NCBI GenBank assembly: GCA_040387555.1
Contig: JAZKDO010000009.1
Location: forward strand, 17,191 to 81,190
Source: Bacteroidota bacterium
GTDB taxonomy: Bacteria > Bacteroidota > Bacteroidia > B-17B0 > Aurantibacillaceae
Direction of reading: 5' to 3'
Length of the DNA: 64,000 nucleotides
A program made the translations under genes and the position numbers. The number at the start of each line of letters is the position of its first letter. The first letter of the stretch is position 1. The notes beneath the pieces are model-generated. The model made no database searches. It saw nothing but the letters and a program-made list of their open reading frames with translations, and was not told the DNA's origin. Of the stretch, positions 49,283 through 59,080 are shown one piece after another.

Positions 49283-49864
49283 ATGAAACATCTAAGCATT
49301 ATATTTCTATTAATTATGGCAGGCAAACTTTCATTTGCTTGTCAATGCCCTATAACCGAATTAACAGACAAGGAGCTTGCTAAATATGATATAATTTTTA
49401 GAGGAAACATAAATTCTATAAAACTTGATAAACAAAATAGTCAGGCTATTTTTACGATCAGTGAGCTATACAAAGGATTACTTGCGCAGGATTTTAAGAT
49501 TTTGTTTAATAATGACGATGTTTGCAAACTGGAATTAAGGGTAGGTGATGAATGGCTCATTTATACAAACTATCACCAGATCGATAATGCTAAACTTGAT
49601 TTTTGCAGCCGAAGCCGGAAGTTCTTTGTGAATATCAAAGAGGATTTTTTTGCAGAGACCACAGGAATCTCTTATGATGAGGAAATACGCTATTTACAAA
49701 CCAATTTAGGAATACATAAGTTGATGAAAGAAAATCCAAATAAAGTGGAGAACAGAAATTCATTACCCTCCAGTAATCAATCTGTTGTCTTAATTATTTG
49801 CTCTATTCTCGGACTGATCTTTTTCTATTTACTCATCAATAAACTTTTTAAAAAGTTTAGTTAA
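49283..49864 (+). CDS. C-terminally membrane-anchored protein with TIMP/NTR-like N-terminal domain (tentative)
   Basis: Signal peptide ...KLSFA|CQC would expose an N-terminal C-x-C. The downstream motifs YDIIFRG, LYKG, DDVC, EWLI and DFC line up with the TIMP N-domain pattern as I recall it. C-terminal TM helix VVLIICSILGLIFFYLLI. Confidence 0.4.
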   Translation: MKHLSIIFLLIMAGKLSFACQCPITELTDKELAKYDIIFRGNINSIKLDKQNSQAIFTISELYKGLLAQDFKILFNNDDVCKLELRVGDEWLIYTNYHQIDNAKLDFCSRSRKFFVNIKEDFFAETTGISYDEEIRYLQTNLGIHKLMKENPNKVENRNSLPSSNQSVVLIICSILGLIFFYLLINKLFKKFS

Positions 49865-50671: not shown

Positions 50672-51355
50672 ATGAAATACCTTGCTTTTTTCTCTTTGTT
50701 GGTTTGGCACTTAACTTCTTTTGCGCAGAAGTCTGTAAACCACAGACTGGTATTTCATCCCATGTTTGGGGATTCGGTTTTAAAAGAGGCGACCTATTAT
50801 CAAATCAACAGTAACGATAGTATACAAATAACTGCTTTAAAGTTTTACATTTCCGGTCTTGAACTTTCGTATCAACATAAAACTGTTTGGAAAGAAAAAA
50901 ACAGCTATCATCTTATGGATGCTTTTCAGGAAGGAAGTTTAACCCTGCCTTTACCATTACCTGCGAAATTAAAATATGACCGTGTTAAATTTAACTTAGG
51001 TATTGATAGTGTAACCAGCGTGTCCGGAGTAATGGGTGGCGATCTGGATCCAACCAAAGGAATGTATTGGACCTGGCAAAGTGGCTATATTAATTTTAAG
51101 CTGGAGGGTAACAGCAATTTATGCAAAACCCGCAATACCGAATTTCAATTTCATTTAGGGGGGTATCAGTTTCCGCATAATAACCTGCAATCTATTTTTA
51201 TGGATATGCCTCATCAAAAATTAGATGTGGTCATCGATATAAAAAAAATGGTAGGTGATTTGCCACTCACACAAATGCACCATATCATGTCGCCGGGAAA
51301 TGAAGCGATGCTTTTAACGGAAACAGTGATCAATGCCATGAGGGCTAAAAAATGA
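50672..51355 (+). CDS. MbnP-like periplasmic (copper-binding) protein
   Basis: Signal peptide, LKFYISGLEL and DPTKGMYWTWQSGYINFKLEG motifs as I recall for the MbnP family. ATGA overlap with the following di-haem peroxidase gene. Confidence 0.55.
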   Translation: MKYLAFFSLLVWHLTSFAQKSVNHRLVFHPMFGDSVLKEATYYQINSNDSIQITALKFYISGLELSYQHKTVWKEKNSYHLMDAFQEGSLTLPLPLPAKLKYDRVKFNLGIDSVTSVSGVMGGDLDPTKGMYWTWQSGYINFKLEGNSNLCKTRNTEFQFHLGGYQFPHNNLQSIFMDMPHQKLDVVIDIKKMVGDLPLTQMHHIMSPGNEAMLLTETVINAMRAKK

Positions 51356-52359
51356 AACAAAAATTTTTTATAGGATTTTTTTTGTGTGTTACCTTATGTG
51401 CCTTCCATGTAATAGATACTAAATTGTTTGTTTCTCCTGAAAACTGGCCTAAACCAAGTTACGATTTTACACAAAATCCTTTAACCTTTGAAAGCGTTCA
51501 GTTAGGCCGGCACTTATTTTACGATCCCATTCTGTCAAAAAACAATAAGATTTCCTGTGCCAGTTGTCATTCTCAATACACGGCCTTTACCCATGTGGAC
51601 CATAATTTAAGCCATGGTATCGATGATCGGATTGGCGTTAGAAATTCACCGGCTTTGATGAATCTTGCGTGGCATACATCTTTTATGTGGGATGGTGCGG
51701 TTAACCATTTGGATGTACAGGCATTAGCTCCGATTAGTCACCCGGATGAGATGGGGGAGAGTATTCAACAGGTAGTTACTAAATTAGGTCAGTCTGAAAA
51801 ATACAAAAAGTTATTCTATAAAGCTTATGGAGATAGGGTTATCACAGGTGAGCGTACTTTGAAAACCATTTCTCAATTCATGCTCACCTTAGTGAGCGCC
51901 AACTCAAAATATGACAGTGTGATGCGAAAGCAAAAACAATTTACAACACAAGAAAAAAGAGGATATGCCTTATTTCAAAAAAATTGTAATACCTGCCATA
52001 CCGAACCTTTATTTACAAACCTGCAATTTGAGAATAACGGCTTGTCCGTTGACACGACTTTAAATGATTTCGGTAGGATGAAGATTACTAAAAACAATTC
52101 CGATTCATTAAAATTTAAAGTACCTACGTTACGTAACGTTGAGTTTTCTTATCCTTACATGCATGATGGCAGGTTTAAAACGTTATCCCAGGTACTGAAA
52201 CATTATACCAATGGCGTTCATCAAAGTGAAACATTAGCGAAATCGTTAGATGCACCGATTGTGTTATCTTCCAACGATAAAGTGGATTTGGTAGCGTTTC
52301 TATTAACGCTGACTGATAAAAAGTTTTTATTTGATCCAAGATATTCTTTTCCAAAATAA
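51352..52359 (+). CDS. Di-haem cytochrome c peroxidase / MauG-family enzyme (MbnH-like)
   Basis: Two CxxCH motifs (CASCH, CNTCH), 335 aa, translationally coupled to the MbnP-like gene. Confidence 0.7.
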   Translation: MKQKFFIGFFLCVTLCAFHVIDTKLFVSPENWPKPSYDFTQNPLTFESVQLGRHLFYDPILSKNNKISCASCHSQYTAFTHVDHNLSHGIDDRIGVRNSPALMNLAWHTSFMWDGAVNHLDVQALAPISHPDEMGESIQQVVTKLGQSEKYKKLFYKAYGDRVITGERTLKTISQFMLTLVSANSKYDSVMRKQKQFTTQEKRGYALFQKNCNTCHTEPLFTNLQFENNGLSVDTTLNDFGRMKITKNNSDSLKFKVPTLRNVEFSYPYMHDGRFKTLSQVLKHYTNGVHQSETLAKSLDAPIVLSSNDKVDLVAFLLTLTDKKFLFDPRYSFPK

Positions 52360-52452
52360 TTTATTTCGCCTTTAATAACTTTTGGGCGATAGATATTATT
52401 GGTTTACCTAAAAATTTAATTTCAACTCTGCCTTGATATTACCTTTATACTA

Positions 52453-52580
52453 TATAAATTTATTTAGGGGAGTATCATAAGAGCAATCTGCGATTTAACC
52501 CTTATACTTGATCCGGGCCATACCGGTAAAAGAAAAATAAGTGTAACCCTCTCATAGAAATATGAGAGGGTATTTTTTTT
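52453..52580 (+). ncRNA. THI-box-like structured RNA unit, copy 1, with intrinsic terminator
   Basis: Preceded by TACCTTTA (52440-52447).
- P1: 52458-52465 with 52535-52542.
- P2: AGGG (52466-52469) with CCCU (52499-52502).
- P4: CUU with AAG.
- P5: CCGG with CCGG (52513-52526).
- Terminator: CCCUCUCAUA-GAAA-UAUGAGAGGG plus U8. Confidence 0.55.
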
Positions 52581-52813
52581 AGTTCAATAATGAGTCATTG
52601 TGACTAAGTGGGGTGGAAATTTTCTTAAATGGAAGCCGAGAGAAACAAAGTCACACAAGTTTCGAAGTAATTTATAGAATTAAAGAACCGACTCATGATA
52701 TCACGATTACCGTTGTCATATTTTTTACTGTTAATTTTAATTTCCGGCTATCTGTTTAATGGGTTCAACTAAAAATTAAATACCTGGGATTTTACTGATG
52801 TATCTTTACAGTA

Positions 52814-52946
52814 TATTATTTATTTAGGGAATAAGTTCACCAGAGCAATCTTAGACTTACAACCCTCATAACTTAAATCGGGATGAAATCCAATCTAAGA
52901 AAAATAAGTATAACCCTCTTGTAGCAATGCAAGGGGGTATTTTTTT
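52814..52946 (+). ncRNA. THI-box-derived structured RNA unit, copy 2 (most divergent), with intrinsic terminator
   Basis: Preceded by TATCTTTA (52801-52808).
- AGGG with CCCU is retained.
- UAAGU with ACUUA extends the helix.
- The apical hairpin AGA-GCAA-UCU is retained.
- P5 is replaced by GGAU-GAA-AUCC (52881-52891).
- Terminator: CCCUCUUGUA-GCAA-UGCAAGGGGG plus a U-run. Confidence 0.5.
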
Positions 52947-53197
52947 ATATGTATTTTCGTTGTCGATAACGACAGTACGATAATGGTATTTATAATCCAG
53001 GAGAGTAATCTATCACACGGTCACTGTCTAATTATATGTTATAAAGTCTTCTCGATGTCCATAGCAACTACTTCATAGTGTGACATCTTGATTTGTAATT
53101 TTTAATCTTCACTGTTAATTTTAATTTCTGGCTACCGATATCATCGCTTTAACTAATAATAAAAAAAACACTTTAATCTCAGCGTACCTTTATAGTA

Positions 53198-53327
53198 TAT
53201 TATTTATTTAGGGGAGGTTTTGAAAGAGAAATCTGAGAATTAAACCCTTATAACTTGATCCGGACAATACCGGCGAAAGAAAAGTAAGTATAACCCTCTT
53301 GTAGCAATACAAGGGGGTATTTTTTTT
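53198..53327 (+). ncRNA. Near-consensus THI-box (TPP riboswitch-like) aptamer with intrinsic terminator, copy 3
   Basis: Preceded by TACCTTTA (53185-53192).
- P1: 53201-53209 with 53282-53290.
- P2: AGGG with CCCU.
- P3: GGUUUU with GAAAUC.
- J3/2: CUGAGA (53233-53238).
- UAU junction, then P4 CUU with AAG.
- J4/5: GAU.
- P5: CCGG-ACAAUA-CCGG.
- J5/4: CGA.
- Terminator: 11-bp stem with GCAA loop (53293-53318) plus U8. Confidence 0.65.
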
Positions 53328-53496
53328 ATTTAATTTTCATTGTTGCGCAGTTTATGAAATCGTGAAAGAAAATAAAACATTCTTTTAAATATTGAAATCG
53401 TTTGTTTAAGCCTCAACTCTTCAATTTGACCTATCACTTATCCGTCCTTAACTAAAAATTAAAAAAACGGATCATTCCTGATGTACCTTTATAGTA

Positions 53497-53624
53497 TATT
53501 ATTTATTTAGGGAATTTTCAAAAAGTTAGTCTTTAGAAATAACCCTCATAACTTAAATCGGGGAATACCGAAATAAGAAAAATAAGTATAACCCTCTTGT
53601 AGCAATACAAGGGGGTATTTTTTT
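53497..53624 (+). ncRNA. THI-box-derived structured RNA unit, copy 4, with intrinsic terminator
   Basis: Preceded by TACCTTTA (53484-53491).
- P1: 53500-53508 with 53580-53588.
- P2: AGGG with CCCU.
- P4: CUU with AAG.
- P5: UCGG-GGAAUA-CCGA.
- J3/2 is altered to CUUUAGA, J4/5 to AAA and J5/4 to AAU.
- The terminator is identical to copy 3. Confidence 0.5.
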
Positions 53625-53728
53625 GAGTAAACGCATCCATTCATCTCAACATTGTTCCTATTCACCTAGTTAATTTTTTAATCCAGCATTCAAATTCTAT
53701 TTTTATATTTAATAAACATAAAAAACGA

Positions 53729-55102
53729 ATGCATATGATAAAAAAAATAGCAACAATGGTTCTGGTTTCTGGCAGCGCAATGGTAATAGCACAAACAAAT
53801 CCTGCCATCTCCTCATGGTTAAGAAATACTACCGGCATTACAGGTAGGCATTATGTATCGGGAAATTCTACTGCCATCACTGATGCTACGTTATCAGCAA
53901 ATGTTCAAACGGTAAAATATTCTGCAAATTATGTATACGTAAGTACCCAGGGAATTCCTGCTTATATCACCGGACCTTTTCTGGATGGTAATCCATCCCT
54001 GGCAACAAATCAGAATGCTATTTTTAAATTTCCATTAAGTCCTGCTCAAAATACCGGAACGCCCACAGCTACATCCGGAGGAAACATTGGTGTATTTATA
54101 AATGGTGTTGCTTTATTTGATTACCGCGATGGTGTTTCATGGAAAAATTCAACCAGTGCAATGGCCGGTGGCCCTTTAGGTGGCTCCGGTGATGGTGTCT
54201 GGAACCGGGATGCAATTGTAGCGGAAAAGGCAGGATTTGATTGTTCAAAAGGACATCCGGCGATGGGAAATTATCATCACCATCAAAATCCAAGCGCTTA
54301 TAATTTGGATAGAGTGGTAATCTCTAACATTTGTAATTTATATGTCGCAGATGGTTTGTATGCAATCGACAGTACTCAACATTCTCCTTTACTAGGTTAT
54401 GCCTATGATGGTTTTCCGATTTATGGTGCTTATGCCTACAAAAATTCAAACGGCACCGGTGGGATTGTAAGAATGAAATCCAGTTTCAGTTTAAGAAACA
54501 TTACAGTTAGAAATACATATTACACTGGTACTTCTGTTACAGCTGGACCAAATGTAAGTAGTACTTATCCATTAGGAACATTCAGAGAAGACTATCAATA
54601 CAATACCACATCAACCCTTACTCCTGAATATCTGGACGATCATAATGGACGCTTTTGTGTAACACCGGAATATCCGGCAGGTATTTATTGTTATTTCGCA
54701 ACGGTGGATCAAAATTGGAATTCAGCATATCCATATGCTGTTGGGCCAACTTTTTACGGAACAAAAGTAGCTGTGAAAGTGACATCAATAACTGAAACGG
54801 TGACTAGCTACACAGGAACTTCCACCGGAACTGGTGAATCAGAAAAAGAAAATTTTAGTATGTTAGTATATCCAAATCCGGCAAGTGACTTAGTGGCCAT
54901 TCAGTTAAATAATATAACAAAAGATAACCTGAGCGTGGAATTGTTTGATATTACTGGAAAGCTAGTTCAAAAAACAATGATATACCAAGGGAGCACCATC
55001 GCTTATTTTGATACAAGAACGCTTTATAGCGGAGAGTACATCATTAGAATCCATCAAGGCACCATGACGCAGACTAAGAAAATTCTGATCGAAAAACAAT
55101 AA
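53729..55102 (+). CDS. YHYH-domain secreted protein with T9SS type A C-terminal sorting domain
   Basis: Signal peptide, GNYHHHQNP, GYAYDGFPIYG and DDHNGRF motifs typical of the YHYH family. The CTD reads VYPNPASDLVAIQL...SGEYIIRI. Confidence 0.6.
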   Translation: MHMIKKIATMVLVSGSAMVIAQTNPAISSWLRNTTGITGRHYVSGNSTAITDATLSANVQTVKYSANYVYVSTQGIPAYITGPFLDGNPSLATNQNAIFKFPLSPAQNTGTPTATSGGNIGVFINGVALFDYRDGVSWKNSTSAMAGGPLGGSGDGVWNRDAIVAEKAGFDCSKGHPAMGNYHHHQNPSAYNLDRVVISNICNLYVADGLYAIDSTQHSPLLGYAYDGFPIYGAYAYKNSNGTGGIVRMKSSFSLRNITVRNTYYTGTSVTAGPNVSSTYPLGTFREDYQYNTTSTLTPEYLDDHNGRFCVTPEYPAGIYCYFATVDQNWNSAYPYAVGPTFYGTKVAVKVTSITETVTSYTGTSTGTGESEKENFSMLVYPNPASDLVAIQLNNITKDNLSVELFDITGKLVQKTMIYQGSTIAYFDTRTLYSGEYIIRIHQGTMTQTKKILIEKQ

Positions 55103-58782: not shown

Positions 58783-58900
58783 TTGGGCGTGCCGGCGAAA
58801 GAGACAGCGCCGTCAGGGTTTACGCTCCAATCTTTCGTCTGCGCTTCGGCTCCGCTCAACGCCCAACGAAAGGATTTTCACTTCAATCCTTCACGCGGGT
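58783..58900. repeat. GC-rich structured island in an AT-rich intergenic region
   Basis: ttgggcgt (58783-58790) pairs with acgcccaa (58859-58866). Nested cggcg/cgccg pair (58793-97 with 58808-12). Hairpin aaggatt-N8-aatcctt (58870-58891). Ends in tcacgcgg. Confidence 0.5.
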
Positions 58901-59080
58901 TTTACGTTCAAATATAGTTGATAATACAATTTTGAAATACAATTACATGAAGGATATAAAGTAGATATACTTTTGCTGGTTCGCCGAATATGGTTACTGA
59001 GATTGTCTCAGTTATCGAAGAGCTTGCAAAGAATTGAATCCTCCATCTGCTTTATAAATACTGCTCAAATTTTAATGTAG

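Follow-up and report, generated by a model that had tools for sequence, protein, structure and literature searches.

The intergenic region and its units

The window analysed here is a 64-kb stretch of the source genome (G000 below). Within it, the 1.37-kb gap between a pair of mbnP/mbnH-like genes and the gene for a YHYH-domain protein is filled by an array of four units, the third of which, at 53198-53327 (copy 3), is the subject of this report. The main features of the region, in window coordinates, are the following.

50672-51355, plus strand: mbnP-like gene, upstream of the array (PF20243, 1.7e-38)
51352-52359, plus strand: mbnH-like gene of the di-haem MauG family, upstream of the array (PF03150, 7e-55)
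52440-52582, plus strand: copy 1 unit, with a promoter-like box (52440-52447), a TPP-like fold and a terminator (52546-52571)
52801-52948, plus strand: copy 2 unit, with the box TATCTTTA (52801-52808), a divergent three-way-junction fold and a terminator (52913-52938)
53185-53192, plus strand: TACCTTTA, a Bacteroidota -7-type box (TAnnTTTG-like), putative promoter of the copy 3 unit
53201-53290, plus strand: TPP aptamer of copy 3, closed by P1 and lying inside the RF00059 match at 53200-53298
53293-53318, with U-run 53320-53327, plus strand: intrinsic terminator of copy 3 (11-bp stem with 5 GC, 4-nt loop, 8 U)
53484-53626, plus strand: copy 4 unit, between copy 3 and the next gene, with a box (53484-53491), a TPP-like fold and a terminator (53591-53616)
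53729-55102, plus strand: next gene, encoding a YHYH-domain protein with a T9SS C-terminal sorting domain (PF14240, 4.2e-55; PF18962, 1.1e-14)

For the mbn-like genes there is also a TIGR04039 match (8.6e-66), below the cut-off of that model, and a gene for a TPR-SpoIIE phosphatase comes after the YHYH gene. Successive units are spaced by 367, 380, and 298 nt, and the poorly conserved spacers hold only short ORFs (24–58 aa), none with a coding signature. Elsewhere in the window, a match to Flavo-1 RNA (RF01705; 43.5 bits against a gathering score of 42) sits at 58807-58905 on the minus strand between divergent DEAD-box helicase genes, with more Flavo-1 matches near the YHYH loci of relatives (L021, L028), and a 193-aa ORF without a Pfam or NCBIfam match occupies 49283-49864 on the plus strand between the hutH-side genes and an inorganic pyrophosphatase gene.

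The gene order around the array was compared across the genus, in which 40 of the 53 species genomes contain a match to the YHYH protein. Thirteen relatives without the array were inspected, and in 10 of them the YHYH gene begins about 100–130 nt (about 230 nt in one case) after mbnH. Many genomes of the genus carry a conserved TCACCTCC-type motif about 70 nt before the YHYH start. In G000 this motif lies downstream of copy 4 together with a TATATTTA box, so that YHYH appears to have its own promoter-like box, which we count against a switch acting on this gene; the array was therefore inserted upstream of the apparent YHYH promoter region. Judged by gene order, the array is probably best described as a young, lineage-specific insertion between mbnH and the promoter region of the YHYH/T9SS gene. 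A motif of the form ATCGCA followed after 10–14 nt by T(T/C)CACCTCC, again about 70 nt ahead of the YHYH start in many genomes of the genus, is found at 53655-53715 of the window and in the upstream regions of L020-L034. G000, G001, and G064 keep it 3′ of the array, and it may serve the copper-related cluster as a promoter element or as the site of a regulator.

Copy 3 is a member of the TPP riboswitch family

The whole window was searched against Rfam 15 with cmscan, and two families reached their gathering scores, RF00059 (TPP) among them. The RF00059 match covers 53200-53298 on the plus strand and the full length of the model (positions 1–105). Its score of 63.1 bits exceeds the gathering score of 54.3 bits, corresponding to an E-value of 5e-10 over the 64-kb window and of 1.1e-11 when the scope is the intergenic region. 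Copy 3 is thus a genuine member of the RF00059 family. A previous reading of the sequence alone had assigned it to the THI box and had proposed this search as a check; every element it named was located at the position given. As Rfam detects copy 3, the identification is in itself routine. The elements of the aptamer, all on the plus strand, are as follows.

53201-53209 with 53282-53290: P1, 9 bp of which 2 are G-U, including an A/U extension
53211-53214 with 53245-53248: P2, GGGG with CCCU (RF00059 alignment)
53212-53217: GGGAGG, proposed antiterminator strand, within the 5′ strands of P2 and P3
53216-53221 with 53228-53233: P3 (RF00059 alignment)
53233-53238: CUGAGA (J3-2), the pyrimidine-sensor motif, identical to that of the fetched thiM leader
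53249-53251: UAU, read from the sequence
53254-53256 with 53277-53279: P4, CUU with AAG (RF00059 alignment)
53257-53259: GAU, in the pyrophosphate-sensor arm (53257-53276)
53260-53263 with 53270-53273: P5, CCGG with CCGG, with the loop ACAAUA at 53264-53269
53274-53276: CGA, 3′ end of the pyrophosphate-sensor arm

The three-way junction of P1, P2-P3, and P4-P5 is seen both in the covariance model alignment and in an independent minimum free energy (MFE) fold. The pyrophosphate-sensor arm has a posterior of '*' at all positions against the RF00059 consensus, and copy 3 lacks the P3a stem that the model treats as optional.

For comparison, the thiM leader of E. coli K-12 was fetched from NC_000913.3. 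It reads C-GGGG-UGC, P3, CUGAGA-AAUA-CCCG-UAU-CA-CCU-GAU-CUGG-AUAAUG-CCAG-CGU-AGG-GA, which agrees at all compared positions with the version that the sequence-only reading had quoted, so the position-for-position comparison with copy 3 stands. CUGAGA, UAU, GAU, CG, and the P5 loop pattern A-x-AAU-R occupy matching positions in the two RNAs, and the difference in P4 is indeed compensatory, consisting of a single pair that is C-G in thiM and U-A in copy 3. The CUGAGA of copy 3 is the counterpart of thiM C38-A43, and its arm at 53257-53276 is the counterpart of G60-A61 plus C77-G78. The ligand-contact nucleotides of thiM, which we take from the crystal structures to be G19, U39-A43, G60, and C77-G78, are all matched in copy 3 (53214, 53234-53238, 53257, and 53274-53275), as judged from the thiM leader and the model consensus. 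Copy 3 departs from the E. coli riboswitch in three respects: thiM controls translation whereas the platform of copy 3 is an intrinsic terminator, the P1 of copy 3 is a 9-bp A/U helix (which also sets it apart from RF00059), and the gene 3′ of copy 3 is not a thiamine gene.

Related units were then sought with a 19-nt degenerate pattern of the P1-3′/terminator junction in 185,579 species genomes. This search returned 49 loci, among which an nhmmer profile confirmed units in only three relatives of G000: G019 (L076), G001 (L087), and G064 (L088). Array units are found in 4 of the 53 species genomes of the genus, at a single locus in each. The other collections searched contained none, two pattern scans of metagenomes yielded no usable result, and the only sequencing run carrying the locus is a DNA watershed metagenome. 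The ten units and their RF00059 scores are as follows.

G000, four units: copy 3, 63.1 bits; copy 1, 43.3 bits; copy 4, 33.7 bits; copy 2, no match (E <= 10, intergenic region)
G064, three units: A, 41.9 bits; B, 62.3 bits; C, 67.0 bits
G019, two units: a, no RF00059 match at E <= 0.01; b, 66.8 bits
G001, one unit: 63.4 bits

Copy 3 is the only one of the four G000 units to pass the TPP threshold, copies 1 and 4 scoring below it, and its canonical orthologues in the three other species score 62.3–67.0 bits. The CUGAGA motif is unchanged in all five canonical units and altered in all five below-threshold units. The aptamer core of copy 3 is 93–96% identical to those of the canonical G064 and G019 units and 82% identical to that of G001, where 6 nt are deleted in the P3 loop region, while the DNA 20–60 nt upstream of the promoter-like box shows 30–62% identity between species. 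In this comparison the core of copy 3 is evidently under purifying selection.

The other TPP matches examined in the genus, at five loci, precede thiC-thiE, thiC, or thiS-thiC. One of them is the second TPP riboswitch of G000 itself (contig 3, 992199-992291, minus strand, 66.1 bits), located in a thiS-thiC leader. This leader resembles copy 3 in belonging to the same family and in having a -7-type box directly before P1, but its sequence is unrelated outside the aptamer consensus and its expression platform is different. A derivation of copy 3 from the thiS leader was considered and ruled out: the similarity is limited to aptamer consensus positions, so that copy 3 did not arise by recent duplication of that leader. 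Two TPP riboswitches were also observed in other families of the same class, at L012 1493-1591 (plus strand, 61.6 bits) and L013 1489-1584 (minus strand, 62.5 bits), both above the gathering score. Each has a hairpin or terminator after it and is located upstream of a non-thiamine gene, for an OsmC-like and a DUF6799 protein respectively.

Terminator, antiterminator, and promoter-like box

Having placed copy 3 in a known family, we examined its expression platform. A terminator scan found that the hairpin begins two bases past P1, in agreement with the earlier description of a long A/U P1 abutting the terminator arm (P1 at 53201-53209/53282-53290, terminator from 53293), and its energy is -17.1 kcal/mol. 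The same scan returned four terminator-like sites in 52300-53800, compared with 0.8 ± 0.9 in shuffled sequences. In all ten units the terminator helix is fully paired (100% of cells), and in three of its pairs both partners have changed (UG/CA replaced by CA/UG, and U-G by A-U). The terminator of copy 3 is a real element, and the conservation of the core together with a covarying terminator supports both a functional aptamer and a functional terminator.

The sequence-only reading had also suggested that a 5′ segment could pair with the terminator arm as an antiterminator. Duplex energies, by which we judged antiterminator strength, favor such a pairing in a slightly different register: the best partner of the 5′ arm of the terminator is GGGAGG with CCUCUU at 53295-53300, extended by UA with UA, at -9.8 kcal/mol. 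This pairing is the best one in four of the five canonical units, representing four species (-9.6 to -9.8 kcal/mol; -9.6 to -9.7 in G064_C, G019_b, and G001). The fifth, G064_B, has a weaker antiterminator (-7.7 kcal/mol) owing to a change in the terminator arm that is compensated inside the terminator, a point that we count against the switch reading. Among the below-threshold units, four of five reach -5.7 to -7.1 kcal/mol and G019_a reaches -9.3 kcal/mol with another partner. The parts of the OFF-switch layout that had been proposed can all be identified (aptamer, abutting terminator, and a candidate 5′-strand antiterminator), but a layout says nothing about the target.

Folding without ligand weighs on the other side. 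The MFE fold of 53197-53328, at -34.7 kcal/mol, consists of the three-way junction and, 3′ of it, the terminator; the aptamer fold is the MFE at all truncated lengths tested, and the antiterminator, which is far weaker than the terminator (-9.8 against -17.1 kcal/mol), is never the MFE; both points count against a switch. Thermodynamics alone therefore predicts the OFF state, and because ligand-free folding already gives aptamer plus terminator, the ON state can only be a presumed one. In our model, copy 3 would act as a kinetic OFF switch. The TACCTTTA box of the unit would direct transcription from a start site just a few nucleotides 5′ of P1. With TPP bound, P1, P2/P3, and P4/P5 would be locked and GGGAGG held within the aptamer, such that the 53293-53318 hairpin and the U-tract would end the RNA at about 130 nt. 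Without TPP, GGGAGG would pair with the 5′ arm of the terminator in a fraction of transcripts, and the polymerase would read on.

TAnnTTTG is the -7 element of Bacteroidota promoters. The TACCTTTA box lies 8 nt before P1, which would put the start site at about 53196-53200. A TAnnTTT[GA] box is present in all ten units of the four species, with the T, A, and TTT letters never varying and with a perfect TACCTTTG in G019_b, and it stands at the equivalent place before P1 in four of five thiC/thiS TPP leaders of the genus. A sigma-70 promoter scan is uninformative for Bacteroidota (9 sites against 8.0 expected) and the count of TAnnTTTG across the whole window is at chance level, so the argument for a promoter draws on conservation and position. 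On the grounds that the box is kept in 10/10 units and has the same position in the thiC/thiS leaders, we favor, with some reserve, the view that each unit is a promoter-to-terminator cassette.

Taken together, these results add copy 3 to a known riboswitch class as a new member that is very likely a TPP-sensing OFF switch. We put at roughly 80% the probability that copy 3 functions as an OFF-type TPP riboswitch acting by transcription termination.

Sister units, target, and comparison with known systems

All ten units fold into the same three-way junction, and several carry compensating changes: P5 has a compensated C-G to U-A change in two units, copy 4 has a P5 of UCGG with CCGA, and G019_a has P2 as GAGGGC with GCUCUC and P4 as CUC with GAG. 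Nucleotides of the ligand site are altered in the sisters of copy 3. Copy 1, whose orthologous units are G064 (A) and G019 (a), has CUGCGA, and its GCG motif has become GUA; in copies 2 and 4, UUAGA or UUUAGA is found, and GAU and CG are gone. The folds without TPP-contact nucleotides lie at 52453-52582, 52813-52948, and 53496-53626 of the window and at L010 1720-1915 (minus strand). The -7 box/P1 and P1-3′/terminator segments of the below-threshold units are 92–100% identical although their cores are only 44–66% identical; for copy 4 against copy 3 the values are 100% (-7 box/P1), 96% (P1-3′/terminator), and 66% (core). Compared with their orthologues, the cores of copies 1, 2, and 4 are unconserved (44–86% identity). 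This pattern would be compatible with selection for transcription, termination, and fold without TPP binding, and also with recent duplication and gene conversion of the flanks.

The array could alternatively be the decaying relic of a duplicated leader that is drifting to loss, with copy 3 as the copy that has not yet decayed in G000. The loss of contact nucleotides in three of the four G000 copies, the variation in copy number from 1 to 4 across species, and the core of G019_a, which is only 44–49% identical to its orthologues, would fit such a history. We nevertheless regard it as highly improbable, as each of the four species has at least one canonical copy at 62–67 bits, the canonical core is more conserved than the adjoining non-coding DNA, the terminators covary, and the below-threshold copies retain the fold.

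We next considered what copy 3 might control. No thiamine gene lies downstream of it, where the YHYH/T9SS gene is followed by the TPR-SpoIIE phosphatase gene, and this absence counts against the switch reading. Pfam, NCBIfam, and the ESM Atlas describe the protein only as a 'YHYH protein' with a T9SS tail, giving no link to thiamine, and a literature search on YHYH and riboswitches brought up nothing pertinent. In G001 and G064 the unit directly upstream of YHYH is canonical, and in G000 it is the below-threshold copy 4. In G019, YHYH and mbnPH are absent from the locus and the two units lie between a pirin gene and a convergent gene of the LOG family (lysine-decarboxylase-like), which also speaks against a switch; the TPR-SpoIIE gene is still the next neighbor there (L010/L076). 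The YHYH gene of G001 (L011 1800-2552) itself appears truncated or interrupted, with a stop after the signal-peptide codons and a restart at about residue 225; this metagenome-assembled genome is 89% complete with 8% contamination, and an assembly error is possible. The ancestral role of the array would most likely have been to add TPP-dependent read-through into YHYH, as the units are arranged in G001 and G064. In G000, read-through from copy 3 would first meet copy 4, which is below the threshold and has a strong terminator and no good antiterminator; the main effect of copy 3 would therefore be on how long a non-coding transcript becomes, with about 130 nt at its own terminator and about 430 nt if the polymerase reads through to that of copy 4. 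For copy 3 we infer the promoter, the ON state, and the target, and the target is possibly a non-classical one.

These arrangements bear on a second explanation, a classical tandem (pseudo-cooperative) leader, in which the 1.37-kb region is one 5′ UTR of YHYH and the four units, in series on one transcript, bring about a sharp TPP-dependent shut-off of the gene. All units are on the same strand upstream of YHYH, two canonical units of G064 directly precede the gene one after the other, and the literature describes tandem TPP riboswitches in which each has its own terminator (PMC9481103, PMC2258182). In G064 two units pass the TPP model (B, 62.3 bits; C, 67.0 bits), whereas in G000 only one of four does, and copies 2 and 4, having neither contact motifs nor an antiterminator, would in series block read-through at any TPP level. 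Every unit moreover keeps its own -7-type box, the distances between units are 299–384 nt and the spacers are poorly conserved, YHYH is not known to be linked to thiamine and has a promoter-like box of its own, and the G019 array has no same-strand gene directly after it. On balance we consider a single tandem leader unlikely.

A third possibility, somewhat less doubtful than the tandem leader though still tentative, is that the units are stand-alone, riboswitch-derived small RNA genes, each autonomous and with a product that acts in trans or binds a protein or ligand. Copy 3 would be, with the same reserve, the TPP-responsive member of the set. Analogues exist in SreA/SreB, which are SAM riboswitch small RNAs, and in EutX/Rli55, an RNA controlled by AdoCbl. 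Flanking segments that stay near-identical beside diverged cores, a three-way junction kept in 10/10 units with compensating changes in P2, P4, and P5, the persistence of the G019 array after loss of its mbnPH and YHYH neighbors, and spacers without a credible ORF all speak for such genes. Yet for a trans regulator, a presence at one locus in 4 of 53 genomes would be recent and restricted, and the identity of the flanks could equally reflect recent duplication or gene conversion instead of selection. Its fullest form, in which the array consists of autonomous small-RNA genes built on the TPP scaffold, with copy 3 as a free-standing TPP sensor whose read-through sets the length or activity of a non-coding RNA and not the expression of a thiamine gene, and with the sisters retuned to another ligand or partner, is as a whole less likely still than the tandem leader.

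The functional TPP riboswitch that we favor for copy 3 matters through its context, since a well-conserved TPP aptamer without a thiamine gene to control is unusual, and it occurs here in apparent promoter-to-terminator cassettes repeated one to four times. The locus offers a natural series of one canonical aptamer and three scaffold-preserving variants that could be used to study the loss or change of riboswitch specificity. Altered specificity within the class is known from TPP-class variants for thiamin or TMP (PMC9481103) and from the HMP-PP thiS-motif riboswitch (PMC6478431). Copies 1, 2, and 4 resemble these variants in keeping the TPP scaffold while the pyrophosphate- and pyrimidine-sensor nucleotides are changed; the likeness is limited to these sister copies, whose cores are unconserved, and does not extend to copy 3.

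Tandem TPP riboswitches make up less than 1% of regulated UTRs (PMC2258182), with 213 tandem representatives, one triplet included (PMC9481103), and the surveys consulted place them mainly in Bacillota, upstream of thiamine genes and within one leader (PMC12452182). In the tenA tandem of Bacillus anthracis (Welz and Breaker 2007, as described in PMC2258182 and PMC9481103), a single 5′ UTR ahead of a thiamine-salvage operon carries both aptamers, and both bind TPP. As far as those two accounts describe it, the tenA tandem differs from the present array in that no thiamine gene follows the array and in that the array units each have a promoter-like box, lie 300–380 nt apart, and in three of four cases fail the TPP model. 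The two systems are alike in consisting of repeated complete units of aptamer plus terminator on one strand, a likeness that in G064 extends to two canonical units in series. If the units are instead autonomous, the array would be a Bacteroidota addition to the very few riboswitches that regulate or act as non-coding RNAs, and if the sisters have also been retuned, it would present a riboswitch family diversifying in place beside a copper-related mbnPH/YHYH cluster.
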